Source of the DNA: Marsupella aquatica
Taxonomy: Eukaryota; Plantae; Marchantiophyta
Reading direction: 5' to 3'
DNA: 64,000 bases
NCBI GenBank assembly: GCA_973895155.1
Contig: OZ316895.1
Span: forward strand, 6,932,184 to 6,996,183
The translations under genes were made by a program, and so were the position numbers. Position 1 is the first letter of the stretch. Every line of letters begins with the position of its first letter. Shown piece after piece: positions 292 through 63,400 of the stretch. A model generated the notes under the pieces. The model saw nothing but the letters and a program-made list of their open reading frames with translations. It was not told the origin of the DNA and searched no databases.

Positions 292-3170
<2,879 letters not shown>

Positions 3171-6326: not shown

Positions 6327-11912
<5,586 letters not shown>

Positions 11913-39860: not shown

Positions 39861-40255
39861 CCGGTAGGAAGCTTTGCAGCACAAAAATTCCTTGAAGTGC
39901 TCTTTGTAATACGAGCAACGCTTTGTGAAAAATAGGATTCATCAGCAATACTCCCAATTGTATTCCTGAAAAGTAGAATTTCAAGTAGCTCTATAGCAAT
40001 AAATTAGACAAACCATTATTTATAACAAGAGCAATGGTATCTGAAAATAGCATTTCACAACCGTGGGGGTTTCACTTCCACAAAAATGGCACATCATGTG
40101 CAACAAAGGATATGGTTGTTTTATTGGTTCTACGGGAAGACTTAATGATTTTCTCAGAAGAACAATAGGGTTTTTGTAATCCAATTTGATACTTATAAGT
40201 CCATTAGGGTCTTTTTAACCAAAACTTTTATAGTAGTTATGGGTGGGAAGTAATT

Positions 40256-41583: not shown

Positions 41584-44500
41584 TGTAGTTTGCTATGAAG
41601 AACCAAAAATACATTTAAAGGTCTTCAAACTCGGTATTCGTTCCCGTAAAGAACAAGATGGGGTTGGTTTGATAAATTTAAACAATAATAAAGAACTAAA
41701 TATGTTTTCCACACATAGTAATCAAGTTTGATTACTTTACTAAGGTATTTTGAAGATCGCTCCACAGCGGTGAGTAGTTTTCAATGATAACTCAGCATCA
41801 TGTAATCATAAATTAATGAAAAGGGAATGATTAACAAAACACAAGGGAAAATATCTTAAAGTATGCTAACTAAGGGAGCCTGGAATTGACCAAGGTTGCT
41901 CCTTAGACATAAGTGAAAATGAAAAGACTTAAGGATTCAAATCCATATTGCTTTTCAGGTCTAAAATGCTTACTAGAGTACTCCTTTAAAGTGCCGTCAA
42001 CACGTCTTGTCTTTTCTTTCTAAGTGGTACTCAGACAAGATCTAAAAGAGTGACTACTTCAACATTTAGATGGTACTAAGCAACATGAAAGAAAATCCAT
42101 CAATTTCAATAAGGCTTAAACTCAATGAGTTAACTTTAAGAACTCAAGAGATTGCAATGAGTCACCAACAAGGAATCTGTCATTACAACTCAAAAGATTT
42201 GCACAAAAGGAATTTTACTTCCTGTGTTTATAATCATAGGTAAAAACACAAGAAGGAGGTAAGTCTCTCCAAATGTTAAACCTGATCTCGAACTCATAGA
42301 TTCATGATCAACTAGTTTAACACAAGGAAAAGGCAAAAATGCATAACTTAACCATAAACTACACTAGTGGTGAAGGGGTCTTATAGTAAAAATCTACAGA
42401 GTGAGAGGTCATAGGGTCGAAGAGACATGCCTCTTCATACTCCTCAAAAAGTCAAAATAGCAATTCAGCCAGTGAAAAGCTAGAAAAGTGGCTAAGTATG
42501 AACCCGTAAACCCTTAAAAGCGTAAAAGCGTAAAAACGTATAAGCGTAAAAGCGTATTCCAGTACACTTAAAAACTTAGCAAATTCAACTATTTTTAACT
42601 TTCTACTCTTGGTCTGGAAAACTCTGAAATTTTGCCAGCAGGTTTTCCTAGGTACAAACTACCTATTGAAGAAGTCTCATAGCTTTTAAAGCTCTATAAC
42701 ACATTTTGAAAAATAGGGAAAGATGCACTATTCTTAAAACTAACTAAAAACACTTAGACTACTCCTCAAACTTGTTGTCGGATGTCTTCTGGTTCGAGAA
42801 GCTCCACGAGGGTAACAGTCCGAGCTTGAGTAACTTCCATCAGCTCAGCCTGGCGTGGGGATCCTCGAGAGTAGGGTAGGCATCTCAATTGCCTTTCAGG
42901 ATACATCAGGGGCATTCTCTTCCTTAGATAACATATGTCTATTCGAAGAGCTTCTCTATATATCCCAATCACGTCATAATTATTGCAAGTAGCAGCATAT
43001 ATTTGGGGATAATGGTATAGGAATTCATCAGAGTTCAGCATCCTGGAATAGAAAGGGTGAAGCCTCCATTTGACATCTCTGAAATATCGGTTGAAGCTCG
43101 CTAGAGTTTGAGAGGTGACATTGTTCCAGATTCTCTGTTTCTCAACTAATGAACTGGTTGAAACAAGGGTAACCTTGGGCTCTCGAGGAAGGTAAGCGTT
43201 TTGGGAAGAAGTAGATTTCTTACTCTGCATGAGAAAAGAAACCACAAAATCTAGGGCATAAGCTGCCAAATTTCCAAAATATGCCAGGACTAAATCTGGA
43301 TCCTCCACCTCTACATCACCTTGAAGTAGCATCACAGCAAGAATAGGTCGGAAGTAGAGAGAGTCAGTCTAGAACTCATCAAATTGTGCCATCTCCAATC
43401 TGGAAGTTCCAAAACACCTGAGGTCGAAGATATAACTGGCCTCTGTCTTCTTGAGATAGTAGTATTTCCAGAACTCTCCAACCGGTGGTCTGTTGGCCTG
43501 CATAATCTTACAGGTCTCCGCATACCTGTGCACTTGGGACTCTGGATGTCTCGGGTATCTACTCTCGATGGTGGCATTCCGGGGTGTCTGAGTAGATGAG
43601 GTGACAACTGCTACTAAGTTTGGATTGGATCTTAAGGCAGTATCAACATCTTCAAATCCTTGCCTTGGGGATGACTCAAGAGAATTATCATAAGATCTAT
43701 AAGTTTCACCATCTGAGGGTGGATCAGAGTCTTCAAGTAGATCCTCTCTGTCGTAAGGGTGCTCATATTATGACCGATTGTAGGTGGGTCCTTCTGTGGG
43801 TTCGTAGTTGGAATCAGGGCTGTAAGGTTGCGAACCTGGGCTAGGAGTGGGACTAGCAGTTGGACATTGTTGGATCAAGTTGCGGACCACGGATGCTATC
43901 TGTCGAGGTTCACACTGAAGTATTTCTAGCAAGTCATCCACAATGGCCACACAGCTGGTACTATCTGCTACTGGAACAGGTTCACTTGTTTCTAGGGGAG
44001 GGGGCTATACAATGACAGGAGTACAGATCACAAACTCCATTGGTGCTGGTTCTCTTAGGGAAGAGGTCATTCTGACAGGACTTAGCTGATCATGAAATGG
44101 TGATCTCAAACTAACAGCCTCCATTCTCAAATTATTAACAGCATCATACAGTCCATCATCACTGTAACTGAGGAGAGATGTCAACTTATCAATAAGCTGC
44201 TGATTCGACTCTGCCTTCGAAGGAGTGGACCTGGTGGTCACATGAGGAGTAGCATCAGTTGGTGTAGCAACATCGTCTTGTTGATGAATGTTCCTTACTC
44301 CTTCAACTTCTAGTGGATCTGCACCTATGGTCCGACTGGGAGAATGCTCATCACTCATTGGATGGTTATCGACTTCCCTGCTATGCATAGGAGAATGTGT
44401 AGGGACTTCTAATGAAGTATCCTCCATAGGAACATCAGCATTCTCCTCAACGTTCTGATCATTCGAATTCAATGGGGTGACATGTACAATGTCCTCCATA

Positions 44501-45598
44501 GGAATTTCTTCTTCAATACCCAAGTCAATCAGGAGTAACCCCCTCTCTGTCTCTTCCTCCAGATATAAATAGTCATGGGTATAATAGAGCTGAGAGAGAT
44601 AATTCTGTAAGCAAGTGGTCCTCCCTGCTTCCAAGCTCCTTACTTGATCCTTCATTACATTAAACAGAAGTAGGGCCCAATTTACTTTTATAGCTCCACT
44701 GTGAGCAACTACAATGGTGTTAGCCAAGGCCACAGGACAGAGAGTTGGCTTTTTCGGATGAAGAATGGGTACCAGAAATTCCATGAGTACCCTCAATTCA
44801 GGATAAGTACACTGGGACAAGTTCCAACCATTCTTGGTATTTCGAGTTCCTGAGAAGTATGGAGTAGATAAGTCCTGCTTCTTGGAATATAATGCCTCTC
44901 CTTCTGACGGGCATCCAAAGGCGTAAGCAATTTGCTCAACAGTCCACAGGCTGGGGTGAGCTCGAATCGTTCGCCTGAATTCAATCGGGATGATAGTCCC
45001 CTTCACAAAATCCTGCAAGTAGGAGTCGAGCTTGACATTCCAGGGGATCTTGAGCAAGCGCTCCAATCCTAAGTGCTGTAAAGAGTCTTGTAGATTAGAA
45101 AGACTATCAGGCGCTCGTGGTATACGAGCTGCCACTACTTTTGAGACTGCTAGAGCTTCAATTTGATACTGTTCCTCAACACCCAGGTTAGCCATAGCTG
45201 CGACGGTGATTTGCGTGCTGTGAAGGTTGCTTTCGAAGAGAAAGAGCAAGTGAATAGGGGTGGTGAAAATACTGGAGTGATCGCCTGAACTCTGTGCTCA
45301 ATTCCTATCAAGGTATGAAGTCCCCAATCCGTTTCTAAGTCCTGTTGTGAAGTTAGCCGTAGCGCCGTAACGTACACTTTCCGTAAACGTGTAAGGTGTA
45401 GGCCGTAACCCGTATTGGCGTAACTTAAATACCGCGTAAACCCGTAAACCCATAAACGCGTAACTCGTATACGCGTAACTCGTATATGCGTAAACGCATA
45501 ATAGAGTACTTGTAACTAAGTTGGAATAAGGTTTAAACACCGTAAAAAGTTCAAAATTTTCAGTAATTTCAGGTTTTCGGTATTACCCACTACTCACA
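41584..45598 (-). mobile_element. ORF-bearing TG...CA insertion 1 (putative long solo LTR, 4015 bp)
   Basis: ATAAT|TGTAGT...CTCACA|ATAAT (TSD 41579-41583 and 45599-45603). In ORF sense it reads TGTGAG...ACTACA, matching the other two inserts. The TSD is AT-rich, so this call is weaker. Confidence 0.65.
42766..45249 (-). pseudogene. Long ORF of insertion 1 (retroelement accessory protein family), broken by in-frame stops
   Basis: ORF pieces 45249-44005, 43950-43768 and 43335-42766 share one frame. The N-domain (LGLERLLKIPW...IAYAFGCP...KNGW...C...LMEFL...NWA...L..YLSQLY) resembles the ORFs at 52934-53773 and 57634-59502. Confidence 0.65.
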
Positions 45599-45762
45599 AT
45601 AATGTACACTGCCAAAAGACAAGAACACCTAACCGGGAGACATGAGAAGGTGGGAAGACTTGGCAATGACGCCTAGCAGAATATTGGGGATTTAAAAATT
45701 GCCCCATAAGGTATAGTAGAAAACGGTATTCAAAAACAAGTTTTTACTAACCTGTCCCCCAA

Positions 45763-46135
45763 ACTACCCAATATTACTAACATGCACCTCAAACAAAATT
45801 AATTATCAGCCCGGCCCCCATTTCGTATTTGGGTTAGTATAATTAACTTGTGTATGGGTTCCTGTTGCCATGTGGTAAGTTGCTACTAGCTAGCCTTAAT
45901 TTGTCACGACCCCCTTTCCAATCCCTCTGTGTTTTCTCCCCACCAGGACTTGCAACTATGCCCTGCAATGGGGAAGGAGGGGTGAGGAGGTCACGGAGAG
46001 TCAAGGCTAGCCAGCAGCAACTTGCCACATGGCAATGGGAAGTCGCATATGAGTTAATAGTAACCCAAATACAAATGAGGGGCGGGTTATTGATCATTAA
46101 TTTTGTATTGGAGCACACTACTAATATTGGTTAGT
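45763..46135. repeat. ~370-bp imperfect fold-back palindrome
   Basis: 45865-45897 vs 46003-46035 pair at 30/33; outer arms 45763-45776 vs 46122-46135 pair at 13/14; weaker pairing continues toward the centre (~45950). Confidence 0.85.
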
Positions 46136-46609
46136 GTGGAAGCATTTTTCCTGAGACGGGATGGGGAGAATTGGGAGGGTTTATGCTTCTTGAATTGATG
46201 CTAATACAAAAACCTGCTTTTAGGTTGACAAAGTGGATTCTATTTAGAAATGCCCTTGTCTGAAGGGTGCTTACTATTCCTGGATAGAAATGGAGATTTA
46301 GAATTAGGTTATTCCAGCCTTAACATTAAGTGATATGCTCTTTGGAGGGGGTCTATTGTCTTTAGGTATGCCCTGTTGGGCCTCGGGTTCCTTTGCCTAT
46401 GGACTTTCCCTTACTATGGATCCTAGCTTTGGGGACCTGCTGTTGGGCTCTCATCCTTGGTCGTAGTGGACGCTTATTACATAGGCTTTCTACTCTGCCT
46501 GTCTACCCTTTGGTTGCTGGTAGATAGTGGTAGGTTTTTTTGACTTCAAATTGCCCTGTTTTTTATTTGATTTTTTATTTGATTTTAAATGATTTTAGAA
46601 CTTTATTCC

Positions 46610-47050
46610 ATGGAGAACCAGAGAAAGAACAAAAACCTGCCTGGGAGGAGAAGGCAAGAAAGAGCAAGAGCAATTAAGGGGGCAATAAAAGGAGCACACC
46701 CATTGAAGATGAAGGGCAGCCTCCACACCCCGACTGCCAGAAGGGAGGAGGCGGAAGAGAATGGGAGGGAGGACCCCAAGGAGGATAGATTGCTATTCTG
46801 AGAGAAGAATTGCGAGAAGAATTGTGTCCGAGAAAAGCCAAAGAAGAATACATTGGCAAGAAAAAACATCACGGAAACTGAAATGGACTTTGCCATCTCC
46901 ATCCACCACAACCGGCCAGACATTGCTGCCACTACTTGAAACCCATCCTGCAAGGAGACACCTACTTGCCCATCACTAACAAGGGACTCCATCATAGAAG
47001 AAAGCCAGTATCATTATGACGGGGTTCCCGTCACTGAAAATCCTCAATAA
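46610..47050 (+). pseudogene. Possible small basic-protein ORF or terminal exon with two in-frame TGA stops
   Basis: 147 codons from ATG 46610 to TAA 47050, interrupted only by two TGAs; preceded by a T-rich tract ending TAG. No family recognised. Confidence 0.3.
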
Positions 47051-50000
47051 TTGTTTACTGGGTTGTGCCATGTAAATAACCATTGTAAATAAGCCGTTTT
47101 TTTTGTTTTTTAGTTAATTCTGTCATTATCGGTTGCTATGCCCCGGAGGTCTCTACTTACTTTTATATCCTAATAGTTCGGATGGCTAAGGCTCCCCAGC
47201 AAGCAAGACTGTTGGGACCTTTAAAATAGGGTCGGTCTAATCGGACACCCCGTTTCCCTTAGGCCATTATTTCCTTGTTATTTTCTTGAGACCCCAATAA
47301 ACAAGAAGCCTTAAGGGATGAGTCCAAAGCCTTATTTCTCTTTTCAAAATCTTCATGATATTCAAAAATGTGTACCAAAAAACCACCCAAAAATGGTATG
47401 TATTTTCCAAACTAGACTCAAGAGAATTTTACCACCAAAATCTAACCATATCTTATATGATATTCTCACAATTGTATAAACCTTGAAATATGCACTTTAT
47501 AAAAGTAGACAAAATCAAACTCTTCGATCAGAGTTTAAGTCAAACTCAAAGTTTTACAGAATATAACCCAACTTAACCCCAAGTGGTTTCAAATGCTACA
47601 AGTCCCCCTATTTACCTAGTCTAATCCAAAGGGACCGCTTCCCCTTCCTCGGTTCCGGAAGTCCCTGCCATCAATTCTGGAACAATTGTGGCATCGTCAA
47701 CCACGCTATCCTCTCCGGCCTGAGGAATGTCTTCCTCACTATCCTCATCCGTCTCCCCCTGTTTGTCTTCCTCTTCAATGTTATCTGCAAGGTTAAGAAT
47801 CCTCCCTTTCAACACACTGCTCTGTCGCTCGTCAATCTCAATGGCAACGCAATGTCTCCCCATGGCCAAGGAGGAGGTTGTCCCAGTCCCTGATCCTGAA
47901 CAAATATCCAAAACCCAGTCTCCAACCTGACTAAAATGACTCACTTCCCAATCTAACAATGCACGTGGTTTCTGATAGACATTCACTGCCTTGTTATCCC
48001 CGTTGTGTTTCAGCTTCTTAGTCACACCTGCGCATACAACCACATTGTTCCTGGATTCATTTGTGTCAAAATTGAAGTGCTCCAATGACCGTTTACCATC
48101 TTGGCTGTGAAAGCCAATTGTAAAGCACTCAAAGTTGTTGTTCAATCTTGGCCCACCAGCATTCTTCACATTACCCTTAACCCTGAAAAGTCACAAAAAG
48201 TCAAGGAGTCATTTAAACTTAGAAACATGGATCATGAAATCATGAATAACTAATAATTGTTTTTTTCAAAAACAAATATTTCTTACCACACACAATTCTG
48301 GAACCCTCCATTACACTCCACTTTCAAAACGGTCTTGATGGCCTCATATTGGTCAAGGCTATGGTGAATGATAATATGCCACAACTTCGCAGTAGTAGCC
48401 ACCTTGAAAGATTGGATCATTTTTGTGATCTCCTCAATTCCCCATCCAGTAGTGTCCTCATGAAGACATCTAGGCAATGCAAACCTGTAGGGGATATCCA
48501 CTAAAGCTAATGTGTAAGCCCGACCCGGAACCACCTCGTGTAATTGCTGAGCATCATGAGTAAAAATATCATAGTGCACATCACCAAACTCTCGATGCTC
48601 AAAAGAATTTGGATGAAGTTCCCCCTCTTGGGTTTGCCAACTAGAAGTCTTCATGGATAGCCAATTTTGCGCTTGCACAATATGCGCATTGAATTTGTCC
48701 GGGAATGACTTGAGATCTTTGCCTTCCTCATCTCCCTTCTTTTTCTGGGAGGTGGTATCTTTCTACAAAAGGGAACCTTACAATTAGAAACAAGGATTCC
48801 AAATATTCAATGAATTCAAACAATCATTCAAAGAAAGGTGACAGAATCTTACCCATGTCTGGAAACAGGTACGAAATTCTTAAGCACATTGTCTGTGCAA
48901 TGCTCAGGGTACTTGGTTTTACAACCTGACCAACTCTCCTCGTGTAGACACGTGAGGAAGGCCTTCTGCACCTGCATCTGAAATTTGTGTCGAGTAAATT
49001 CCTGACCCATTTCTTGTAAAGAGAGTTCTTTAGTAAGAACTCTCTGTAACATTGGGCAAATCATATCAGGATCTTTCAAGGCCTGCATGTGTCTCCACTC
49101 TGTTAATTTCATGTCCTCATAAGGCAATTTGGCATCTCCAGACTTAGAGACTTTCTTCTTGCCCTTGTCTCCTTTTTGACCTTTGATCTCACACATCTCC
49201 CACTTGTCACAAATCTGCCTCACAAATGACCACACAGGATCTTGTCGGAATGCCAACTGAAATAGGTTATCGTTGGCATTAAGAACCTCAACATCCTTCT
49301 GCACACCCCAATCCTTGAGATTGATTTCAGTAGCACACTCTTTCTTGAAATCCTGGTTGGACGACAATCCATTCTCCACAAATCTCATGTGAATATAATT
49401 TACTCTCTGGATTGTCGTCATTTGTTGTCGAAATTCAGAATCAATATTGTGACTCCACGCCAAGTTTCTTGCCTCTTGCACACTCAATCCTGCAAATATC
49501 CAAGATTGCACTCTCCGAAATGCCTTGTTGTTAGGGAACTGAAGAGCAAGGTCTGATTTGGCACAGGCTGAATGGTTGCCCCCAATCACATAATAATGGT
49601 AATCAGATTTCCTTGAAAAATCAAAGTCTTGCCTAGTAGCACACTCCTTCGGATCCACCAAGAGGACAAATGGAGCTGCAAGTGGACTGGCACCTACAGT
49701 CTTCATCCGCAAGGTCAATTGGGTCAAAAATATGGTTGGATGTGTCAAACCTGGTAAATGGGCAAGCCCACAGCCTTCTCTCTCACTGGAGGGTAAAGTT
49801 GACCAATGTCAACCGTCACGGTCTCCTCTTGAACACCACATCTTCCCAGAATCTCCTCCTGGTACAATACCCGTGCATCCATTGACATTGATTGAGCCTT
49901 TTGCTCCAAATGCGTTGTGGTGCGTCCCATGGCTCCCCAAACACAAGAAACCCCCCGCACAAGCCGATTCCCGCAGGTTTTGTGCTCGACGAGGCCATTT

Positions 50001-50605
50001 CCGTGGCTTAGCGGTATGGGACGCTGCTAACTTCCTTCTACTACTATTATTAACATTTTACACACATATACTGGACAGATCCTTCATCGGGTCATGAGAT
50101 ACGTAGTCGGCCTAATCTAGGCCTTCTCTTGTCTTTCCCTCCTATTGGTTAGGTATATTTGGATTCCGCCGCCGGAATGATCCCCAATTGGCTTGGTTAA
50201 GCCGCTAAGACCTCTCTCAGCTCGACACATCCAACTCTCACTCCCTTGCTTACTTCCCTTCTTCTACTTGTTGATGTGAGCACTCTTCACACAAGTTAAT
50301 GCGACACACAAATAGCAAAATGACTCCTTCTGACTGAGTTATACCATGCACTTGCAATACAAACAGTACGTCTCATACACAAGCTCTGCGAACTAAGCCA
50401 TGAGGCCAACTCTATTCAGTTCTTAGGTATGAGGAAACATGAATATACACAAGGGTCATTGTATAACTAACCGAGAGCTTCTCTTACTACTTGATCCCAG
50501 CCCGGCTGGTGCAACTAAAAACTTGCTAAAGAAGAGGCCCGGAACTCCCCGCAGCCCAGGTACTTATCCTGGCTGTGGATCCGCCTGATTCCTTGCAGCG
50601 TAGGC

Positions 50606-50678
50606 CTAATTTACCTACTGTAATCTACCTAATTGTAATCTACCTAACTGTCATCTACCTAACTGTCATCTACCTATG
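50606..50678 (+). repeat. ~15-bp tandem repeat (tacctaactgtcatc), about 5 copies
   Basis: Visible directly, just downstream of the long ORF in insertion 2. Confidence 0.8.
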
Positions 50679-50863
50679 TATAGCGAGGCAGGAGCACAAG
50701 TGTCGCCCTTACCCGTGGATCCGAAATCCCACTAATCTAAGTGTCAGGGCCATCTCCTGGTCCTGATCCTAAGTCTAAACTTGGAGATCAGTGCCCGCCC
50801 TGCCCACTCATGCCTCCTACCTCCACGTCCGCCCTCCCTAAAAGGGACGGCGCCCTTACACCA

Positions 50864-53800
50864 TCACGACACCGGTGGCTGGTCCTCAATGGACGCCCCC
50901 AACGCTTCCTCCGCAGCCACTGCCGTTGGTCCGTCCTCTGACAGATTACCTGCCCCAGACCGAGTCAACTCTTCATCGGCCTGACTGGGTCCACCCTCGG
51001 CTTCGGCCTCAGCATCGGCCACGGCCTCTGATACGGCTAAGGCCTCCCCGATATGTTCTAGTGGAGGATCCGGTACCTCGGCAGCATTACTGGTTTTCCC
51101 GGCCTCAACCTTGCCATCCCCACTTCCTAGGACTGGTGGATCCACCGCCATGTCGATGCCAGAGGTTGGTGCCAGGTTTACCTTCTTGGTCACAACGGCT
51201 TGAGAAGCCGTATAACTCCCAGACCCAGAAGGTTTCCGCTTCTTCTTCTTCCCTATTTTGACAGCCGGTTCCTTCCCCTTGCCACTTACCTCCGGCACCG
51301 GGGTGAGTGTCTCGGCTTGTCCTTCGGCCAATACTACCCCCGGTAACTGGGTTCCCCCAATTGGAGTTGGACCTGATGAAGCCAAGCATTTAAATACTAC
51401 GGCTTGTTTCTTCAGCCGCTCCGTTTGGTTGTCGGCCTGCCGTTGTAGGTTCTCCATCTTCCTCGTGATTTCCTCCAACTCCTCCTGGGTCTCATCCAGG
51501 TCCTTGCGCGCCTCCTCCAGCTCTTTATTGGCTTCCTCCAATTCTTTCTTTAAGGTAGCCCTCTCCTCCTGGGTTGCTCTTAGCTCCTTGTCGAGCTCTG
51601 CTACGACCACAGACTCCATCTTATTCATCTTGGCATAAGTCTGGTCGAGCTGGTCGTCCTTTTCACGCAAGTCGGCCTTGAAGCTGGCCGTCAGGGATGC
51701 AAGCTCCTGCTGCAGCGCAATAATCCCTTGATAGGATTTCCCTAACTCTGCTTCCTTTTGCTCAAGGGCTCCGCGGATATCTTCGAGCTCTCCTTTCAAC
51801 GCCCTCTCCCTTCTCTGAGTCTCCGCCATGGTCCGGTTGTTGGCGGTTAAAGGGGCCTCCTCTATGTCCCTTAGCTCCCGCTTCCATTTCTCTCTTTCTT
51901 TGACTGCGTCGGCCAACTCTCCTTGGGTCCGAGTCAGTTTATCTTTCATAATCTGATTGTCAGACTGAGCGGTATCCAACTGCCCCTACATGATGTTTAG
52001 CTCATGCCGCTTAATCCGCAACTCATCTTGGGTTTTCTTGGCCGCCTTCAGGTCTTCCACCTCGGCTTCCATCTCCCTAAGCCGTCGGATGACCTCGTCC
52101 TTCTTGCTTCTTTCCAAAGCCACCGCTTCTTCTAATCGGTGCTTTTCCAACATCTCCCTCTGGAAAAAGGGTCCCTGCTCCAACTCCTCCCCAAAGATGC
52201 TAAGCGCCAGGTCCCCACACATCTCCCCGTACTCCATGGCTCTATCCTTAGCATAGGTGGAGTAACTAGAAGTCATCGGCATCAACCACCACGGCCTCTG
52301 GTCCCAAGCCGCCTTGCGGATTTCTTCTACGGTGGCAAGAGGGTTGCTTCTTTTTTCGGCAAGCCGCCTGATGTCCTCCGGCCAATCTCCTCCTCGTAAA
52401 TCTTTCTCCCTAGCCAGGGCTGCTTTCTCTTTCTCCCTAAGTCGCTCCTGAAATTCTTGTGTCGTCTGCTTTATGCCGTCAAAGCTCGGGGGAGCAACCT
52501 CTGGTGGGGGAGCCTCGGGGCTACTCTGCTGGGTGGGGTCCCCTCGAACTACTCTTGGAAGTGTGGGGATAAATCGGCCATAGGTCCTTACTCTTGGAAC
52601 ATGATGATCCGACCCATAGCCGGAGTTATCATTGCTGTAGTCCTCCACCACCTCCTCCACTACTTGGACTCCCGACTTCTCCCTTTGTTCCCCTGGTCCT
52701 GTCGTGAAAACGGCCTTACAGATCATGGGCTCTGGTTCCTCTGGTTTCCAGGCTGTCGTCTCCCTGTTCTTTCCGCGGGGAGGAGCCTTTGGCTGCTCTG
52801 CCTCTGATTCGGGGCTTGAGGCTCCCACGTACCTTCGCACTCCCGGCTTGTGTTCTGGCCTAAATCTCTCCTTGGTTCCGGTAAAGGGGTCTTCCCTTCT
52901 GAGTCGGCTTAGGCCAACCTCTGGGGCAGCATCCTATATCGATGCCGTTGCCATTGCCGGAACCAGTGCCGATGCCGTTCTCTTTTCCTTCTCCAGCAAT
53001 TTCAGCAGATTTTGCATGCCTGGTTGCTGCATCGGCAAGTCTTCTTTCCTTGGCCGAAACACCTGCTCGATCGTCGGACTATCAGGCTGGTTGGGCTTCT
53101 CTGGTGCCGGCCCTTGCTCCGTAACCTCCTCTGGTGCCCTTGCCGATAGGGGAAGTACTGGGGCAAAGATTTGACTTCTGGCATACCAGCACAACAGTGG
53201 CATGTGATAGCCAAGCCGGGACACGCTTCCCATGCCGATCACCTGCTGTTCCTCCTTCAAGATTTTCTTTAGTTGGTTGAGGAGGTACCCGTTGTAATCC
53301 TGGCTTGGGTCTGGCCTTTCTGCCAGGTAGACCTGAGCCTTGCCGATCTCTGCCCTCGGCAAGTTACAGTGCATGGTCACCCGCAAGAAATCGATCATCT
53401 CTCCGATGTGCGGGTTGGTGTAGGTGTTCCAGAAGAAGCCATTCTTCGTTGATGGTCCTGGGAACGACCGGAATTCCTTGTCAGGTAAGGTCTTCCTGGT
53501 ATCAACCTTGGTCTTATTACCCATCGGCAAGCCAAACACCTCGGCAATCACCCGGGGAGTGAGAAAGAAATCCTTCCCATACACCCTCGTGGAATTGGTC
53601 TCGGGTTCCCATGATCCCACAAATTCTAATAAGTCTGAGTCCGGCACCTCCGGCTTCAGCCATGGTAATCTTACGAAGGCTTCCAAGCCGGATCTGGCCA
53701 TGAAGCCCTGGTACTTCTTGGTCTGCATGGCCGTACAGCATGCATCCTCCTCCCGTGCAAAGTGTAATTGCACTTCCTCCGGTAGGGTCGCCGCCCAGCC

Positions 53801-53990
53801 TTTCCAGGTGTCATCGTTTGTTGGAATGGCATTGATGGGATTGACCTCTTCCTCTTCGGCTTCTCCCTTTGTCCTGCTCTGCTGGCTTCCTAGGTGCCGC
53901 CGACCTCGTTCTTTTTGCCGGGGTGGCCTCCTCGTTGTTGTTTCCTTTCCTCTTCATCTCGGCTGCCGTGGATGTTTCTCCTAGCAAGGT
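50864..53990 (-). pseudogene. ~1000-aa ORF of insertion 2 (conserved N-domain, Pro/Glu linker, long coiled coil), split by in-frame TAG stops
   Basis: ORFs 53773-52934, 52840-51986 and 51979-50864 are in one frame, separated by TAG codons. N-domain GLEAFVRLPW...EFVGSW...VYGKDFFLT...VFGLP...KNGF...IDFLRVTMH..PRAEI. A separate 113-aa ORF lies upstream (54027-54368). Confidence 0.75.
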
Positions 53991-55613
53991 TGCCTTCGTC
54001 CACCCCTCCATGTTACCCTTCAACTCCTAGTGTAGGTTGTTGCAGCAATTGATGGCTTCCCGGATGCCGATGATTCTATTTTTGCAAAATAGAAGGTCGT
54101 CGAGCTGATTGGCAGTAGGAGTCCACAAGAACTTGGCCTTGATAAGTTCTCCTCCTAAGAAAGCCGTCTTCTGCAGTTCCCAGAGCCGAGCGAGCTCCTG
54201 CCATTCTCGAGCTGCTCTCTCTGATTCTTCGTCCTCGTAAGTCCTGACGTACTCACTTGCCCGTTCGAACAGGCATCCCCAAAAATGTGCCGCTTGATTG
54301 ACGTTGCTCATACCCTCCTTGAGTCGATTGTTGGTATCTGTTCCCACCCCGAGTGCTTGCCTAAGCAACTGACAATATTTGGCCCCCCGTAGTTGTCTGC
54401 CCAGTTCGTTCTTGCAAATGAGCCACTATTCCTCGCAAGCGGTCCTTACCCCTCTCCTCCTCTGGTCTTCCCTCCCGTTGGTCACCCCTAGCCGCCGACG
54501 CTTAGCGCGCCCTAACCCTAATTGTGTTCTCTCCCCCGACATCCTTACTTCCGGCCTCGGCCCGGGTTCCATAGTCACCCTTAATTGTTTAAATTTTCCT
54601 TGTTTTTGTTCCTATACTAAGGTGTTTCCAGGGTACACTCCTACTTTACCATGTAAACCGGCCTAGTGATTCCTGGCTAGGCATCACATGCGTCAAAATT
54701 TTCTCCAAAGTCTTCTTTTTTGACTTTGGAGCACTGGGCTTGGCAGGCTCAGGAGTCATAGCAGGTCACTTCTTTGAAGAAGTACGAGTTCCAGTCGTAC
54801 CTTTCCAACCCACCTGTCAAAGCCGTTCCTAGGGATGATCTGCCAACTTGAGATCCCCCTCCAGATGCTGCTACTTCACGGGAGGTTGTAGGCGCTACCA
54901 CGGTCAAAATGTCATCGGGTAAAATGCTAGGCCTGGATCCAGAAGGAACACCGGAAGCCCCAGATTTGGGAGGACAACTTACCCCCTTCTCTGCCGATCT
55001 TTTTCGGAGAATCTCTCGTGATTTTCGGATTGCACTCTTTAAAGTGCTAGCGTGGAATTCGAACACAAAATCGGAAATCTTTCCTGCGACGTCGTGGTAA
55101 CGTTCCTCACTCGAAAGAGACTTGACAATCTCAATGATGCTATCGATGTCCTCATCGAGATAGAAGGTGGCAGCCGTTCTAGAAAACCTCTCCACATCCA
55201 CCACAATCAAAGTTGACATTTCCTTCGTTGTGATCAACATGTTCACAACTTCGTCTCCCTTCGAAATACATCAATACGGCCATAATTGACCCACCCTAAT
55301 GCCCCCGATGGAAGCCCCTCAAATACACACAACATTAGGAAGGGCTTCTTCCATGTTTCCGTCCCTAAGGAAATCGTCCAGGATGAGTTGTGGAAGTCCG
55401 TCAAAGGATGGCGCGAAAAGATGTCATCCACCAGCTCTTCCTGTGACATTGTCATGTTCTCGCCTGATCTTTAAAACCTGAAAACATACCACAAAATCAG
55501 TCCACTTCAACCCCAACCTGCGAGATAAAGTGCCATAGAACCAAAGAATGTGCCAACAAATGGCTACTAAAGCCGTGTCCTTATGGATCTAACAATGCTC
55601 TCGGCCACCCCAG

Positions 55614-56160
55614 GACTCCTACCATGAATTCATGAAGGGAGTCTCCCTCTTGCACCGACCTTCATGAATTCATGAAGGGAGTCTCTTCTCTCTTTGCATG
55701 TACACCTTGGAGATTCAGAAGGGTATTGAAAATGGGGTGCGGAGGGAGGGTGATGTGAAGAAATCTCCCAGGGTCTAAATTACTACCTAAAATAGGGTCG
55801 AAATGAAGCGCGACCACGATAACTTGCGACACATCGCCGATGAGTGCTGAAAATGGCACGAAATTGGACAGCGAGATTGTTTTTCACTCTTTTACAAAGG
55901 AAATCCAAATGACATCGAGTGAAAATGAATGTGCTACCCCGTGTTACTTGGTTATACATACTAATCATGGATCAGGCGCGACTTAGTAAAATTAACACCA
56001 AATCATGATAAATCAATGTTTTCGAGCCAATTATTCATGAATATTTTGGCGTATTAACGAGAAAAATTTCATGAATTTCATGAATATCTGATATTTTGAA
56101 GTTAAGAAGTCCCGACAATCCGTGAAAAACTATAAATAGGCTCGTTTATTCATGACTCTT
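55614..56160. promoter_or_regulatory. Divergent promoter region with clustered CATGAATTCATG/TTCATGAA palindromes and a TATA box
   Basis: Imperfect 30-bp palindrome at 55614-55643, perfect 20-bp CCTTCATGAATTCATGAAGG at 55659-55678, TATTCATGAATA at 56032-56043, TTCATGAATTTCATGAA at 56068-56084; TATAAATA at 56131, about 100 bp before ATG 56236. Confidence 0.6.
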
Positions 56161-56635
56161 GGTCATTATTTTGAGGAGATTTGTTAGATTTTACTAATTT
56201 TCTTAGTTTCTTGTCAATTTGCACTAGTTTTTCCAATGGCGGCATGTTATGAATCAGATGATTATTCAGATGGAGTTTCTGATGATGTTTCATTGCCGGA
56301 TGGCCCATGCACAGTGGTTGCCCTAGATATCCCTAGAATAACTACTATTTTAGATATGCCACCCCCACCCCTATGAGCAAGTTAAAACGTACTCCTTTAC
56401 GACTTGCAATTAGTGGGAAGAAATCATTGGTCGGTGGTAAGGAGAGGTCAGGGAGCTCCTCTGACTCCTTGGAGAGTATCGGTCCCCCTGGACGTCAAGT
56501 TGTGTCTCCTTTGTCACCAACAAAGGACAATTTGGGTAGTAATGTGGAAGGTTCAATGTCTATTGGGATGTCTGGGAAACGGTCTCATGAATTCATGAAG
56601 ACTGGATTTGGAAAGACGAAGAAGGCACTAAGTGG

Positions 56636-59600
56636 TGTGACACGGGTAACGTGTCACTTGACCGAACCCAGGTCGTAGATTAGGACTTATACGGTCATTA
56701 GGACCGTAGCCATAGTGTAGAATAGCACGTATAGCCGTCTATTGCCATTATGATTAGATTAGGAGTAGGTTAAGATGATCGAATCATTACGAGTTCAGGA
56801 AGGGGATTATTACGCGCGACCGAGGTACGGTGGCGGCAGCGGAGTAAAAATCAGTTAGAAGAATCACGCTTGGACCGAGGCGCCGACTTCAGCTCGCTAT
56901 CAATGACCAAAACGGCCTGGCCTTCTCACGCTCGGGCTCATCCTGGCACCTTCATAAGAGAGGAGCCGATGGTGCTGCGGGCCATTTGCTCATGTCTACC
57001 TTTCTTTGAATTCGCGGACGTTGCCACCCACTCGCCCTGCTGATCGAATCGAGTCGACCTTTACAAGGAGATTATCGAGGGAGAAGAGCGGAATGTGGCG
57101 AGATTTAGTCAGGACGAGCGAGGCCTCCACGAGACAGAGGACCAGCCGGGTGGGAACGCGGACTCAACGAACTGGACTATGAGGTTAGTATGACCCTCAC
57201 AGCCTTGGGATTTTGGACCTTGTTTGGTGAGGTAGGTGCTAAGTTCTCCGAGACTTACTGGTACTCTTCCCCCGAGAAAGCCGCTTACAAACGAAGGTAC
57301 GCAAAGCTGGTAACCAAGGTAGCACTGGTTAATTGCAAAAGGACAGCCATCACCAGGGATTCTAGCTACAACGAGCTGTGAGACTACATCACCGAACTAT
57401 ATCTCAGCAAAGAAGGGCTTAGATCGGTAGCAGAGGCGATTCTTGAGGTTCCAACGAAGTTCTTTAAGCTGAAGAGCAACCAACGGCTTACTCAAGCGGA
57501 GTTCGACAAGATTCTGGGGTACCTAGACCAGCAGATTGCAGCCAAAAAGCGCCAGGAAGACATCAGCAGACAACGGGAAGCGGCGCGTAATCTCACGTTC
57601 CTTGGGGAAAGCTCCAACGCCTTCAACTGGGATATGGCTACCCCGATACCACCAGTGCCTCAACCAATGACCACCGGAGTACCGCCGAACCAGTCCCAAG
57701 TCCGTCCAGTAATCAACACGGAGTGTTCTTCAGGTTCCGAGCGAGCTAGTCCGCAACTCAAACAGCATCCTCGTAAGTGGCCAAGGACTACGACGGCCCC
57801 CGAATCAACACGGACCGACGCAGCGCCTACGCCTGCCCTGCCAAACCCCCCGACCAACCAGACCCGACGGCCCCTGGATAACCCGAAGTCCAACTTATTA
57901 CAGGTAATCCGCGTCCCCGAGGTAGTCTGGATCGCGATCAAGAAACTCAAACATGCAGACTATCTCAAGGAGCATCAGTTGGAGCGGTTTGCCCACTTGC
58001 TATGGAGGCCGTGCACCACCGGGCCAAAGGAGATTTGTGAGTTCATCTCCAATTTCGACACTGACGCGTCGACCACCAAGGTTTCGGGGCAAGCTTTATC
58101 ACTCACGGAGCATCGGTTAACGCAAATCTTCTGCCTACCAACCGGGCCGGTGCCGGTGGAAATCCAAATTCGGGATAAGGAGTATACGCCGCGGCACTTC
58201 AAACCTGAGGGTAAGACGGACAACGGATACAAGCAGGGGGCGTGCACCAACTTAACCTGTATGGAGCGGCTTAACTTCATACAGACTACCCTACACATGA
58301 TTGAGCCACGATCCGAGATTTCCCTCTGCACGATCGTGCAGGTGGAACAGTACAAACGACAAAACTGGGCCCAATTCTTCTACCAAAGATTCTCGGGGGA
58401 GCTGAAGCGGGCTCAGGGTGGTATGGCTATTGGGGGGAAGACTTACTTGGGAAGTCATATCGCCATTATCCTCGCCTGGTACAAGGCACGGCGGGAGGCC
58501 AAAGGAAAGAATATGGCCACCTCAGCCCTGGGTAATGTCACCCCCACCCCAGAGGAGGCAACCCCGACTACGCGGACTACCGTCCCTCGGGCAAACCCCG
58601 AGCCGGAAGCCCCGACTAATACTCCGCCATCGCCCCCTGTGGAAATTCCACCGCCCCCTTCCGTCGAGCCTCCGCTATCCGCAGTACAACCACCCCCAAT
58701 CCCTCCACCACCTGAAGAGACCTTCCCCTCCCCAACGCTGACTACGGAGGAGCTCATTGCCCCTGCCGAGGAACCACCGGTACCCGAGAAGATGGAGGAC
58801 TACCAAGTAGCCCAGGGGACCATGGCCTACGACCTGGTCCAGAAGTTTAGCCACACTATGTCTGGGGAGCTGGCGGCGTACATCGGACAACAAGTCTCGG
58901 CGTACTTTCAACCAACCTTCTTCATGTTAGAGCACCAACCACGGATCGTAAGCCACCTGGAAGAAGAACTCATGGCGAAGGGGAATGAGATCGGGCGCCT
59001 CCAGATGTTGGTAGAGCACCTCGAGGAGGAGGCAACAACCAGATGTGAGGAGTTAGTCCGCACCGTCGAACAGAGGGACGGACTAAACCAGGAGTTAAGC
59101 GGAGCGCAGGTCGAACTCAAGAAGCTGGATGACACCGTGCTTCAATTACGCTCAGAATCTTCGGCTCGGGTTACCAGCCTGACCGACCTCAACAAACAAT
59201 TCCTGCAGATAGCACAGCAGGTGGCTAGTCTCTCCGCCGAACGAGATAAATTGCTAGCGCAGGACCAGGTCCATCGCGACGCCATCGACCAGCTCAACTT
59301 GGAGGTAGCGCGGCTCCAGACCGAGGCCGATGAAGCTGCAAACAAGGCGGAGGAAGCAGTACGGGACAACAAGGCTTTGCAGGACCGCATTACCCTGCTC
59401 ATCCTCCAACGGGGAAAACCTGGGCCCACCTTTGATCAAGGCGGCTCGAGGTCTCGTCCCGACAAGGGGACCAGCCCTGGTCCAACCACTGCACGCACGT
59501 AAGGGGTAGTTAGCAAAGGGTGGAAGCAGGCGCCGCGCGAGGCAGTTAAGTCAGCGACATCTTTTGGTTAGGCGTAACGATAGAATGACTGTCATTAGGC

Positions 59601-60484
59601 GCCGATTAGCGGCAGTAAGAAGAATTAGGGCCAGATCAGTTAGGATCAGCCAACGTAGGATAGAGTCCATCAACGGACTAGAATTTGTCAGTAGGATTGG
59701 CCGCTGCCATCCCGGTCAGCACCTTGTCGTCGACGGTCAACCAGTCAGTACGGCGCGACTAGTAGTCAGTAGGTAGTTAGTCAGTAGGTAGTATCCCGGA
59801 AGGCAGTATCCTCTGGCTCTCCTCCGCGATTGTAGTATTTAGGCTTCCCCTTCCGCTAAGGAAGGGGAGAAGGCTTAGTTATCTCAGCAGAGGGAAGGTG
59901 AGGCACGGGGAGTCCTGGCCTGAGCAGGGTCAGAGTGCACCAAGGAGTGAGAGCCAGAGTCGAGCTTGCTGGGCAAGTGCGAGGCAGGGCCTCGTAGAGA
60001 CTGGGCATCGACTGCCGTTGGGCCTGCTGACCCCCTTTGAAGTCGAGTCAACCATGTAAACTGATGCTTTGCTGAGTAAATGTAGTCTTTTCCCCCTAAT
60101 GTTTCTGCAAGTAACTGGTGTTGTGTGTATGCTTTGTCTGGGTAAAGGCGCCATTTTAAGGGACGTACCGGGTGCGGACTAATGGTAGGGATTGCCACTC
60201 ATTGTATGTCACAAGGTCCTGTCGTGTCGATGGCTTGAAAGGCCCCAAGCCGGGAGTTAGTCCGAGTCACTAACTGAGGGAATATTCCAGCGGTGGAAAA
60301 CAAATATACCTATGACTAGTACGAATTATTCAGGTGTTATACCGGTAAGTATATCGACTTAGCCCGACTTAGGGCTAATTGAGGTCACTACACACCTCCT
60401 TGCCCGAACCCCTCACCCTTACTGGTGGTCGAGGTCGCACCATGGCACTAAACTGGATTTAAGGCCCAGGTTAGCGGCACGACA
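56636..60484 (+). mobile_element. ORF-bearing TG...CA insertion 3 (putative long solo LTR, 3849 bp) inside the transposase gene
   Basis: AGTGG|TGTGAC...ACGACA|AGTGG (TSD 56631-56635 and 60485-60489). Excision restores the host frame. No internal terminal direct repeats and no gag/pol seen. Confidence 0.92.
57634..59502 (+). CDS. Intact 622-aa ORF of insertion 3: conserved N-domain, Pro-rich linker, coiled coil
   Basis: LERFAHLLW...EFISNFD...KVSGQALSLT...IFCLP.G...NGY...LNFIQTTLH..PRSEI...NWA...YLGSHI aligns by eye with the 279-aa ORF at 52934-53773; heptad-rich C-terminus. Confidence 0.8.
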   Translation: MATPIPPVPQPMTTGVPPNQSQVRPVINTECSSGSERASPQLKQHPRKWPRTTTAPESTRTDAAPTPALPNPPTNQTRRPLDNPKSNLLQVIRVPEVVWIAIKKLKHADYLKEHQLERFAHLLWRPCTTGPKEICEFISNFDTDASTTKVSGQALSLTEHRLTQIFCLPTGPVPVEIQIRDKEYTPRHFKPEGKTDNGYKQGACTNLTCMERLNFIQTTLHMIEPRSEISLCTIVQVEQYKRQNWAQFFYQRFSGELKRAQGGMAIGGKTYLGSHIAIILAWYKARREAKGKNMATSALGNVTPTPEEATPTTRTTVPRANPEPEAPTNTPPSPPVEIPPPPSVEPPLSAVQPPPIPPPPEETFPSPTLTTEELIAPAEEPPVPEKMEDYQVAQGTMAYDLVQKFSHTMSGELAAYIGQQVSAYFQPTFFMLEHQPRIVSHLEEELMAKGNEIGRLQMLVEHLEEEATTRCEELVRTVEQRDGLNQELSGAQVELKKLDDTVLQLRSESSARVTSLTDLNKQFLQIAQQVASLSAERDKLLAQDQVHRDAIDQLNLEVARLQTEADEAANKAEEAVRDNKALQDRITLLILQRGKPGPTFDQGGSRSRPDKGTSPGPTTART

Positions 60485-63400
60485 AGTGGGCCAAATGACG
60501 GAGATTTTTGCAGTCTCCAAAGTGTTCAGCGGCTGAAGCAAATGCCAAAAAGTAAAACCTTTGGTAAGCCAACGTCGGAAACATTTCACAGGGGAATGAG
60601 GGAAGAAACTAGACAACCAGTGTTATTGAAAAGTATTCCAGAAAGGAATTCTAATGTGTGTTCCTCATTTTTACCTGGGAGTCATGGTGTTGGGGCAGGG
60701 AGCGGATCAAGTCACGGAAACTCAAACAGGGAAACCAACCTGGTGGAGAGGGCCCCTAGGAAAATATTGAAAGGGTCCTTACACGGTAATGGAGGGATTT
60801 CTGAAATACGCCCAGGTATTCCAAGGCTGCATAGAGTGAAGGAAGAGCCTCCATCTCCGAAGGCTGCAGGTCTGGAATCTCGGGATGTTCAGAAGAAAAT
60901 GTTGGTGACCATTTCATCATCGAATGATAGCGAGTCTTCGGAGAGTGAGGAGGATGATGATGTTCCAGTGGCATCTAGTCGTTACAAACGTACGAGCAAC
61001 GCCACTTTGTGTGAAACAAAGTTGAAAGAGGAGGATATCAAGAAAACAAATAGTAAGTACTGTTGTTAGAGTCATTGTCTCCTAAGTCTATCTCCAAAAG
61101 AAATTCGTGAGGCGCGTTCTAAATTTTTGAGGTAGAAATCTCAGGATCGATCTTTATCTTTGTAGTGGCTTATAAAGCAAGACGGAAATGAAGGAGGGAG
61201 GCAAACTATATCTCACACGTTTGGTCAAAAGAGTATTTATCAGAAAGCTTTCAAGCTTATATTTTGCGTTGGCAATCAGAGATTAAATAGAATTTTGAAA
61301 TTAGACAACCAAGACTTAGGATATTCTAAACCAGTTGGACACCCTCCAGCTGTTAAAAGATTAGTCTTGGTCAGTTGGCTTAGGTCATTTTTTGAGACAC
61401 GCGTGGAAACATTGCCAAATAAAGAAGTTTCACATTTACCGAGTAATTATTCAAAGCTGGAGGTATGAAAGATCTACGATTCCAACCATGCCAAGATTGA
61501 TGAATCATCAAAAATATCCTATCGACAATTCTTGAAAGTTTGGGCTCAAGAATTTGGTCATGTGAAGATTCCTCCAGTCAGTCGATTCAGTGCTTGCGCG
61601 GATTGCGAGGAGTTCAAATCAATTCGGGACAAAGCTGTCTCGGAGACCGAAAAAAGTAAGTTACTTACAAGTTTGACAAGTTTTTTGTTTCAAGAATATG
61701 GCTTAGCACATGATTTCTATTTTTTTGAAGAAACTAACAAGTTGTTTTTCCAGGGCGAGGGGAGATTATGTTACAAATACATAGAGACCAACAATCCAAA
61801 GAACGTGAGAAACTCGCAAAGCATCGTAAGAAATGATTTTCAAATCCTGATAAATATTTGGGAGTTGTCATTGATGGGGTGGATCAGAAGAAGACAAGGT
61901 TGCCTCATTGGCCGCGTCCCCCAAAATCGGTGGACGAAACATGTTTGATCCAAATGCACGTTGTCGGATGCCTGGTTTTCAATGATGCACTATTTTCAAG
62001 AGTATTTCTTAATTATCCTGTATTGCATAATGATGGAAACTTGACAGTCACAATCCTGCAAAGGGTGTTTCACGAATGGGAAGAAAAGCCTGGTGGCTTG
62101 CCGCCTGTTCTCTATCTTCAACTTGATAATACCAGTAGAGAAAATAAAAATAATTTACTCTTTGCCTATCTTCATATGTTAATTCGAAGAAAGGTTTTTC
62201 GGAAAATCAAACTAGGATTCTTGTTGGTTGGACACACACACGACCAAATAGATCAAATGTTCAGTCGATTTTCTAAACGACTAGCAAGGTTTAAGGCATT
62301 CACATACGAAAGCCTATGTGATATTATTTGCGAATCATATCAACCCCAACCAAATATCACTCTTTTAAAGGAAACATATGATTTCCGTCAATATGCCTTC
62401 TTAGATCCACCTTTAGTCATTGAAAGGATTTGAAATGTTACCTTCCACCACCAGTACAAATTTGCACTTGACAAGTTGGAAGATCAAGTTCCAACCCAAT
62501 GGGGGAAGAAGTTTTCCACGGACTCAACTTGGAAACCTGACGGAGGCGTGAAATTTTTAGGGAAGAGGAGCCAGAAAAGGTGATGGGTTGTGCTCCCGGA
62601 TTACCCCTTTTCAAAAAGGGGGATAAGAACGTTACAAGGACTCAACCAAATATGTCTAGTTCTTCAAGAATGACTTTGAAGGAGATGGATGATTCGTTAA
62701 ATGAGATTCAAAAGGGAATACTTGCAGTTGAAACTTTATTCTCAGAAGAGGAAGTGAACTGGTGGAGAATGTTTTTTGAAGAGCAGTGGGAATTGAATAA
62801 ATCCTTGCTCCTTGATCAAAGACCATTGATTTTCCCTTTTCAATGGCCATGTTCCCAAGGGGAGATTGCTGTTGCTGCTGAAGTTCCCAGAGTCCTTGTC
62901 AATGAAGAGGAAATTGAAGAGAGAGTATACGGACCTACCAGAGATATATACGTGGGTCCTTATCGGAATCAAGGAAAGATAGATGCAGAGAAGGAGAATA
63001 TGGAAGGAGACTTTTCCGATCTTGAAGTCAACACTTATATTTCTGTTGCTAGAGATGTTGTCAACTTTTCCTTTTTCAAATTGCCTTTACCACTTATTCA
63101 TGAATTCATGGTTAAAGTTTCTTGAGAAATTTTTAGTTTAATATTTTCTTAGTGGGTTGTGTTTCAATTCAATTGGATGGTGTCATTTCTATCCTCCTTG
63201 TCTTCTTTTCACAATAATGTGTATCAGGCTAAGTTGTAGTAGTTTATTTTCTGGTTTTTAAATGACAATGGCTTTTGGAGGTGATTTAGTTATCGGTTCA
63301 AGAGACAGCTCGTGTAATTGTGAGACCATTGTAGATAATAGTGTTGTATTTGAGGTCATTTATTGGTGGAATGTATTTTCAGATAAATTTGGTCATTTTT

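Follow-up and report, generated by a model that had tools for sequence, protein, structure and literature searches.

VANC proteins, encoded by VANDAL transposons of the MuDR type, recognize short motifs that differ between families and lie in non-coding arrays, where they cause methylation loss (PMC5735166), and the VANC domain resembles the PMD of MAIN/MAIL1 (bioRxiv 2024.04.02.587720; PMC13547354; bioRxiv 2024.09.27.615353). Sequence-specific anti-silencing has been extended to Spm in a preprint whose available text does not mention "retrotransposon" or "LTR" (bioRxiv 10.64898/2026.08.24.746577). A retrotransposon-encoded PMD protein is already known, as PMD-A is encoded by Gypsy elements in angiosperms (PMC5418596). 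The role of extra open reading frames (ORFs) in plant long terminal repeat (LTR) retrotransposons is considered an open question (PMC7264820), and such ORFs are internal in all the elements covered by the available portions of three reviews (PMC7264820, PMC6317226, PMC11963269). Here we describe three units, E1, E2 and E3, in a 64,000-nucleotide stretch of contig OZ316895.1 of the liverwort Marsupella aquatica (hereafter the window). We consider these units to be, probably, solo LTRs that stem from three Athila-like families of Ty3 elements. In these families the LTR has likely grown to 3.8–4.8 kb and come to contain a gene, which is predicted to encode a DNA-binding protein of VANC-type fold that would act against the silencing of its own family.

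The protein of E1–E3 is like VANC21 (PDB 9lnj/9lnk) in its predicted fold over 170–198 residues, its disordered linker and its coiled coil, and, as in VANDAL, short family-specific motifs accumulate in the element (PMC5735166). Unlike VANC, however, the protein comes from LTR-type units (TG...CA ends and 5-bp target-site duplications, TSDs) and has a relative in a Ty3 rather than a MuDR element. In addition, VANC is described in the available text of PMC13547354 as dicot-specific, whereas the host here is of liverwort grade and the protein has 10% identity to VANC21 and no DUF1985 match in Pfam. Binding and demethylation are known for VANC, while for the E1–E3 protein both are predicted.

Genes within U3 are known from retroviruses, in the form of mouse mammary tumour virus (MMTV) sag and other U3 ORFs. 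The position of sag is that proposed for the gene of E1–E3, although the two are unrelated in sequence and role. Among plant elements, Athila and Calypso resemble the Ty3 relative of E1–E3, a metagenome contig that we term L001, in having gag, protease (PR), reverse transcriptase (RT), RNase H and integrase in that order, an Athila-type primer-binding site (PBS), an extra ORF that follows pol in sense orientation and precedes the 3' LTR, and two polypurine tracts (PPTs). The extra ORFs of Athila/Calypso, the PMD ORF of Ogre and the TRP28 ORF of Retand are internal (PMC7264820, PMC6317226), in contrast to the ORF of E1–E3, which lies between LTR termini. Ogre LTRs reach ~5 kb, the size of E1–E3, and in the available text of PMC6317226 and PMC1142308 they are not described as coding. 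Sirevirus elements have, as here, clusters of CG-rich motifs in the LTR and just before the extra gene, as well as upstream PPTs that lack an attachment site; unlike here, they are Ty1/copia, their gene is internal, and no element-encoded binder is named in the accessible part of PMC2829016. In the literature, as far as its text was available, we found no report of a plant retrotransposon with a gene in its LTR, or of a retrotransposon-encoded protein resembling VANC; the paper on the structure of VANC21, which fell outside the scope of that search, may discuss such relatives.

Three TSD-flanked units in the window

Read in ORF sense, all three units start with TGTGA, end in AC[C/G/T]ACA and are flanked by 5-bp TSDs (Table 1), and the coordinates, termini and duplications given in the initial annotation proved exact throughout. 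The pattern was rejected as stand-alone proof of insertion, as four TGTGA/ACA pairs with a TSD were present in the window and 30 simulated windows had 1.8 on average, a difference not beyond chance. The insertions of E2 and E3 are settled by independent evidence from empty-site contigs. These came from four public runs of two studies, with the source of the window possibly among them. Contigs joined across the E3 site with 3854 bp skipped (3849 + 5) in all four runs, and across the E2 site with a net 4778 bp skipped (4773 + 5) in three of the four. With E3 removed, the host frame was open for at least 99 + 100 codons across the site, and with E2 removed the host-sense frame comprised 24 + 56 codons. 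Among the best-supported 15 of 365 joints there was neither an empty site of E1, whose insertion is indicated by its TSD only, nor an ORF-less version of E2 or E3. E1–E3 are real TSD-flanked insertions, and those of E2 and E3 are confirmed by exact empty sites.

Each run provided 13,344–38,547 contigs on the 19.7-kb stretch containing the units, mostly 90–99% alike. All 30 bins of the stretch were covered, and E1–E3 therefore belong to multi-copy families; E1 was covered by contigs from other copies at a likeness of 80% or more. Summed contig depth did not change consistently from the tail to the ORF, and as this measure cannot rank the parts of a unit it was not used as evidence.

Self-comparison identified no young terminal repeats in E1–E3, and tblastn with the proteins of L001 identified no gag, PR or pol in the window. 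There was no PBS or PPT at or within the unit ends, the terminal inverted match was 3 bp only, and no unit had an integrase match. Words longer than 9 nt from the first 60 bases of E2 and E3 had no second copy within the unit. Since E2 and E3 are young and yet have unrepeated starts, an ordinary LTR pair is excluded for them. The earlier statement that the units lack paired repeats, gag, RT and integrase was thus upheld for gag and pol and for young pairs, but requires amendment in that E1 has one diverged direct repeat. The ~1 kb of non-coding sequence reported after each ORF was measured at 1182, 948 and 982 bp in E1, E2 and E3, respectively. Rfam gave no matches in 41500–60600.

Table 1. 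Coordinates of E1–E3, their internal features and the surrounding host element in the window.
Feature	Position	Strand	Details
E1, likely solo giant LTR, 4015 bp	41584..45598	-	TGTGA...ACTACA; TSD ATAAT at 41579-41583 and 45599-45603
E1 start segment (bases 6-163), CpG-rich leader	45436..45593	-	TTACG array at 45370-45545
E1 accessory ORF	42766..45195	-	809 codons with 3 stops in frame; ~aa 25-225 VANC-like; long coiled coil absent
E1 worn start copy	42496..42662	-	+103 after stop; second TTACG array 42509-42549; no TG, no PPT
E2, likely solo giant LTR inside host DNA element, 4773 bp	49916..54688	-	TGTGA...ACCACA; TSD TGCGT
E2 accessory ORF	50864..54311	-	main frame 50864-53953, preceded by 53811-54311; broken by 3 stops and a single frame change
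E2 ORF, VANC-like domain	53114-53812	-
E2 ORF, long coiled coil	~51400-52200	-
E2 T-tract, purine tract and TG	50824..50843	-	25 bp past stop; 2 similar tracts elsewhere in tail
E2 tail repeats	50624..50676	-	four TAGGTAGA repeats, 15-bp spacing
E2 35-bp motif common with E3	50150..50184	-	TATA-like word at its end, 244 bp from 3' end
E3, likely solo giant LTR inside host ORF, 3849 bp	56636..60484	+	TGTGA...ACGACA; TSD AGTGG
E3 accessory ORF	57190..59502	+	770 codons, interrupted by one early stop; ATG 57634 opens an intact stretch of 622 aa
E3 ORF, VANC-like domain	57871-58533	+	followed by Pro-rich linker
E3 ORF, coiled coil	~58920-59400	+
E3 35-bp motif common with E2	60278..60312	+	TATA-like word 182 bp from 3' end
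Multi-copy host element with E2 and E3 inserted, likely DNA transposon	47297..63572		ends approximate; contigs without E2/E3

The accessory ORFs and their protein family

The units encode homologous long proteins, as had been reported, but all three ORFs are broken, by one to three stops each and in E2 also by a frame change. The ORFs of E2 and E3 had been placed too short, as their real ATGs are further upstream, at 54311 and 57190. The related domain of ~200 aa was recovered in all three proteins (blastp E values of 3e-22 for E2–E3, 5e-5 for E1–E2 and 0.007 for E1–E3) as one hidden Markov model family, and long coiled coils were found in E2 and E3 and not in E1, in agreement with the earlier description. 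Over its whole length the E1 protein is 66% identical to an intact 808-aa homologue, P0084, and the extra N-terminal part of E3 has a homologue in P0118 (E 5e-12). This additional N-terminal part (57190–57630 in E3, 53811–54311 in E2) contains an FW.LF word, characterizes the E2/E3 subfamily, is common to P0118, P0121 and P0241, and has no family name. A second conserved region, C-terminal (approximately residues 490–707 of P0097), is present in P0097, P0132, P0140 and P0144 of the E1-side subfamily, and the C-terminal region of E1 and P0084 differs from it.

Decay after insertion, estimated from stop counts, was 0.035 for E1 (95% interval 0.007–0.10), 0.018 for E2 (main frame) and 0.012 for E3, which suggests that the ORFs of the solo units lose their frame at a roughly neutral pace. 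Given such near-neutral decay, the gene would serve the element and not be a case of host domestication.

Pfam provided no domain for the window proteins beyond coiled-coil noise. Run against 1.84 billion representatives, a profile of the three domains gave 165 matches at E ≤ 0.001 (46 at 1e-10), and a further search yielded 35 longer proteins, mostly of one family, in clusters of up to 166 members. The E3 domain was also used as query in a word-based search of proteins, which produced 475 candidates, none of them significant. Twenty homologues were looked up, and the four with a species name were from Calypogeia (two), Riccia and Selaginella. The domain was compared with PMD, Transposase_28 and ATHILA ORF-1, as suggested by the initial annotation, and with Transposase_32: no Pfam match above cut-off was obtained for the window proteins, but five of 111 alignment members touched Transposase_32 below threshold (best 34 bits, cut-off 45), and the family profile aligned with a Transposase_32-touching member at a probability of 98. 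By sequence, DUF1985 was identified neither in the proteins of the window nor in the family listings of the 111 alignment members. A link to Harbinger was not accepted, as the DDE_Tnp_4 fragments on two of 72 homologues look like gene-model fusions.

A FastTree phylogeny was made from 112 of 204 sequences, after removal of near-duplicates and of domains shorter than 170 aa. It placed E1 with the L001 protein in one deep subfamily (an 11-row clade, Shimodaira–Hasegawa support 99) and E2 with E3 in another (support 98). Searches for the loci of relatives yielded none in viral contigs (P0097, P0256, P0244), none in prokaryote genomes (P0256) and, in a metagenome scan of 29 candidate stretches, one, L001.

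A predicted VANC-like fold

The initial annotation left the protein unnamed, and it still has no Pfam name; structural modelling now predicts that its domain has a VANC/PMD-type fold. The AlphaFold model of the E3 domain had a predicted local distance difference test score of 93 and a predicted template-modelling (TM) score of 0.89. Its top PDB match in Foldseek was the VANC21–DNA complex (prob 0.98, TM 0.54, E 0.067), and a VIA alignment to VANC21 covered 191 residues with a Z of 8.0 and a root-mean-square deviation of 4.2. When the same model was compared with 48,161 chains, VANC21 scored Z 7.9 and the next best chain 2.2. VANC21 also ranked first for the model of the L001 protein, which belongs to the other subfamily (Z 5.6, 170 residues aligned), with deviations of 4.2–4.5 across both models. 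The Atlas feature neighbours of the domain were DUF1985 and PMD, at 0.93, and BFVD gave no matches at E ≤ 0.001. These models lead us to predict a VANC-like mode of action for the accessory protein, although it is no VANC by membership.

Family motifs and CpG profile

Motif enrichment was assessed against a Markov-2 background with Bonferroni correction. Each of the four elements had an enriched CG-containing word of 6–7 nt, different per element: TTACGC in E1 (9 copies, p 4e-4), CGGCTT in E2 (18, p 8e-4), CGGACTA in E3 (7, p 8e-3) and AGCGCTA in L001 (11, p 2e-6). Enrichment was thus below p 0.01 in all four elements, versus p > 0.2 in all 12 control stretches. The motif of E1 forms two non-coding arrays, one on either side of the ORF, and that of L001 is clustered in the LTR, before gag, in the protease–RT interval and in the linker of the accessory ORF. 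In L001, AGCGCTAC was observed to cluster even in the protease–RT linker. The accessory protein may bind the motif words of its own family.

The observed/expected CpG ratio of the leaders was 1.52 in E1, 1.19 in E3, 1.05 in L001 and 0.76 in E2. The corresponding values for the ORF were 0.44 in L001 and 0.36 in E1, and for the tail 0.42 and 0.44. As a separate observation, gag and pol of L001 (1–3717, 8171–10852) are extremely CpG-poor, at 0.13 and 0.07, with the accessory-gene leader at 1.05.

L001, a full-length Ty3 relative

L001 is a 10.9-kb contig, collapsed into a circle, that contains a complete Ty3 element: gag, protease, RT, RNase H, integrase, PPT1, a leader of 451 bp, the sense ORF, PPT2, an LTR of 991 bp and the PBS. 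The domains Ty3_capsid, RVT_1, RT_RNaseH, Integrase_H2C2 and rve were identified in this order, and protease by position and motif only. The LTR runs from TGTGA to ACTACA, the PPTs are at 3757 and 6560 and the PBS at 7576, and a TG stands behind PPT2 only, not behind PPT1. From its motif, the PBS is presumably of the tRNA-Asp type. There is an apparent 11-bp spacer between LTR and PBS (7565–7575), although the exact LTR end is not fixable from a collapsed contig; a shorter spacer, of 5 bp, has been reported in Calypso and Diaspora. The PBS of the latter two is of the tRNA-Asp type (PMC1142308). An extra PPT has been reported in Athila4 and Calypso (PMC2829016). Judged by its gene order, Athila-type PBS, sense extra ORF after pol and extra PPT, L001 is an Athila-like Ty3 element. 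Its accessory protein is 36% identical to that of E1 over 221 aa.

The layout of E1 follows that of L001 from PPT1 to the end of the LTR. This span is 3794 bp in L001 versus 4015 bp in E1, the leader 451 versus 403 bp and the distance from stop to LTR end 1114 versus 1182 bp, and the termini TGTGA/ACTACA of E1 and the L001 LTR are identical. The CpG profile over leader, ORF and tail is likewise the same in the two. As L001 is without similarity to the window at the DNA level, the match is argued from layout; the leaders of E1 and L001, too, were within the shuffle range when compared. The diverged repeat in E1 is a copy of the unit start that begins 103 bp past the stop, where the LTR of L001 starts at +123. 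The two E1 segments have 72% identity (105 identities, 41 mismatches, 33 gap columns) and a local score of 86 versus 42 ± 6 for shuffles (maximum 60, n = 200). A mismatch of 28% is several times what the decay of E1 itself (0.035) would give for an LTR pair, and the copy therefore predates the insertion; it is likely the relic of an old LTR start. In E2, the tract 25 bp past the stop is, weakly, a possible relic PPT. The 35-bp motif common to E2 and E3 (83% identity, E 3e-4) may, with its TATA-like word, be a candidate U3 core promoter.

A proposed route for the gene into the LTR

Where an integrase-made unit offers no way from the start of the LTR to its end other than through the ORF, a single giant LTR is the simplest explanation, and with solo-LTR criteria as in bioRxiv 2021.05.30.446350 we regard it as quite probable that E1–E3 are gene-bearing giant solo LTRs. 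Among possible functions of the gene, anti-silencing is the favoured one, at about even odds. The earlier proposal of a Ty3-like lineage with an accessory gene inside giant LTRs agrees with the termini of L001, the exact TSDs and the lack of young repeats as far as Ty3 origin and solo LTRs are concerned, but not in full: in the only full-length relative found the ORF is internal. An ORF within the LTR is therefore no lineage-wide property, and at best the derived state of the E1–E3 families.

We envisage the following route. The attachment site (TG) would come to stand behind PPT1, in E1 apparently via a duplicated LTR start, and plus-strand priming would shift to PPT1, and PPT2 would decay. 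With priming at PPT1, U3 would begin before the ORF and take in the leader, the gene and the old U3. The long LTRs would then recombine to solo LTRs with one TSD pair each. In E2 and E3 the TATA-like motif would act as core promoter, with the ORF in sense orientation within U3. The protein would bind the motif arrays of its own family through its domain, oligomerise via the coiled coil (E2, E3) and keep element copies under-methylated, as VANC does for VANDAL. Since E1 and E2/E3 belong to different deep subfamilies, LTR growth likely occurred more than once. More broadly, and only tentatively, Ty3 elements of liverwort-grade plants may carry a VANC-like anti-silencing system of protein and co-evolving CG arrays, which several families have moved into the LTR by a PPT switch, giving two copies per element and gene-seeding solos.

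A number of observations weigh against the giant-LTR reading. In a search that covered contigs and the loci of relatives, we saw no parent in which two giant LTRs enclose PBS-gag-pol-PPT, and none of the 24 loose-end rows inspected, of 6608, had a shared continuation at a terminus. The ORF of L001 is internal, outside the LTR, L001 had no detectable similarity to the window at the DNA level, and the E1 and L001 tails scored within chance (145; shuffle maximum 151). The scans for relative loci found no full-length relative of the E2/E3 subfamily, and neither E2 nor E3 had a start copy beyond the shuffle range. As to function, the motifs of E2 and E3 are scattered and mostly coding, unlike the non-coding arrays of VANC, and possibly reflect codon use. 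The VANC21 match is middling (Z ~8, 10% identity, Foldseek E 0.067), and VANC21 was absent among the 50 Foldseek rows listed for the model of the 708-aa, mostly disordered L001 protein, which had no clear match. Proteins of PMD fold have roles in silencing, too, or in countering Polycomb, and the fold therefore leaves the function unfixed.

It is somewhat unlikely that the giant-LTR structure holds and the protein is no anti-silencer but another DNA-binding or scaffold factor, such as a transcriptional activator, an integration tether or an RNA packaging aid. The fold match of only Z 5.6–8.0 would allow this, and PMD-A, TRP28 and env-like retrotransposon ORFs are without a shown function in the available text of PMC7264820, PMC11963269 and PMC5418596. 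Against it, the family CG motifs and the CpG-rich leaders beside CpG-poor gag and pol (0.07–0.13, L001) fit local methylation protection.

As regards structure, a distinctly unlikely alternative is that an L001-like parent primes at PPT1 and that integrase directly inserts a one-LTR subgenomic product, PPT1-ORF-PPT2-LTR, as a TSD-flanked gene cassette; neither recombination nor a parent with giant LTRs would then be needed. E1 equals the L001 span from PPT1 to LTR end in size and layout, all three tails are ~1 kb like the LTR of L001, and E2 has its PPT-like tract and TG 25 bp past the stop. However, such a parent requires an intact PPT2 and TGTGA, and E1 has no PPT and TG after the stop and its start copy is old; in none of the three units does the tail contain TGTGA behind a purine tract. 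Upstream PPTs are, moreover, described as outcompeted and without attachment sites (PMC2829016).

An ordinary deletion derivative, in which an element with ~1-kb LTRs lost most of its 5' LTR, PBS and gag-pol after insertion and kept the ORF and 3' LTR, is improbable. The internal ORF of L001 and the repetition of the 5' piece of E1 where a 3' LTR start is expected are in line with this explanation, but the divergence of that repeat (28% plus gaps) far exceeds twice the decay of E1 (~7%, upper 20%), and a repeat of this kind is lacking in E2 and E3. The first 100 bp of E2 are also covered by many contigs (place 54603), and three independent deletions of the same pattern are unlikely.

Lastly, a class of self-contained, non-autonomous elements that have no LTR pairs, either DNA moved by a retroviral-type integrase (Ginger/TDD-like) or a retroelement of the type of terminal-repeat retrotransposons in miniature (TRIM) or large retrotransposon derivatives (LARD), is very improbable despite the TG...CA ends, 5-bp TSDs and multi-copy whole units, as Ginger/TDD transposons have terminal inverted repeats and an integrase-type transposase where E1–E3 have an inverted match of 3 bp, the paired LTRs, PBS and PPT of TRIM/LARD are absent from E1–E3, which have no PBS or PPT at their ends, and the one mapped relative of the protein is in a Ty3 element with the same LTR termini.

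One family of extra ORFs here gains a testable function, in the form of a predicted fold resembling that of VANC21 and of a target motif predicted for each family. The PPT switch would be a simple route for an internal gene into the LTR and would explain some giant LTRs and protein-coding solos; gene-bearing solo LTRs would get annotated as orphan host genes. If the broader reading is true, the VANC/PMD fold would be present in retroelements far outside flowering plants, motif arrays upstream of "env-like" genes would have an element-encoded binder, and each solo LTR would seed a gene for a trans-acting anti-silencer.

The host element and other features of the window

The element that hosts E2 and E3 is ~7.6 kb without them. 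It has a DUF7869 ORF at one end (61954–62433; Pfam 2e-48) and an imperfect subterminal inverted repeat (I5). Its unnamed ORFs, at 48283–49706, 54749–55240 and 56373–56635/60490–61069, are divergently transcribed.

Elsewhere in the window, 200–4300 and 8980–12900 form a tandem duplication with a period of ~8.77 kb and 84–96% identity, and the duplicated gene is presumably subtilase-like, as judged by its motifs. A GH17 glucanase with an X8 domain is at 26140–27651, with liverwort proteins as its closest relatives (Calypogeia fissa, 67%). We take 39420–39900 to be a probable copia-type LTR remnant, also from a motif, and there is a related fragment in opposite orientation at 32247–32289. Finally, a 51-bp inverted repeat with arms 650 bp apart and 94% complementary (37259–37309/37960–38010) lies within a phosphatase-like gene region.

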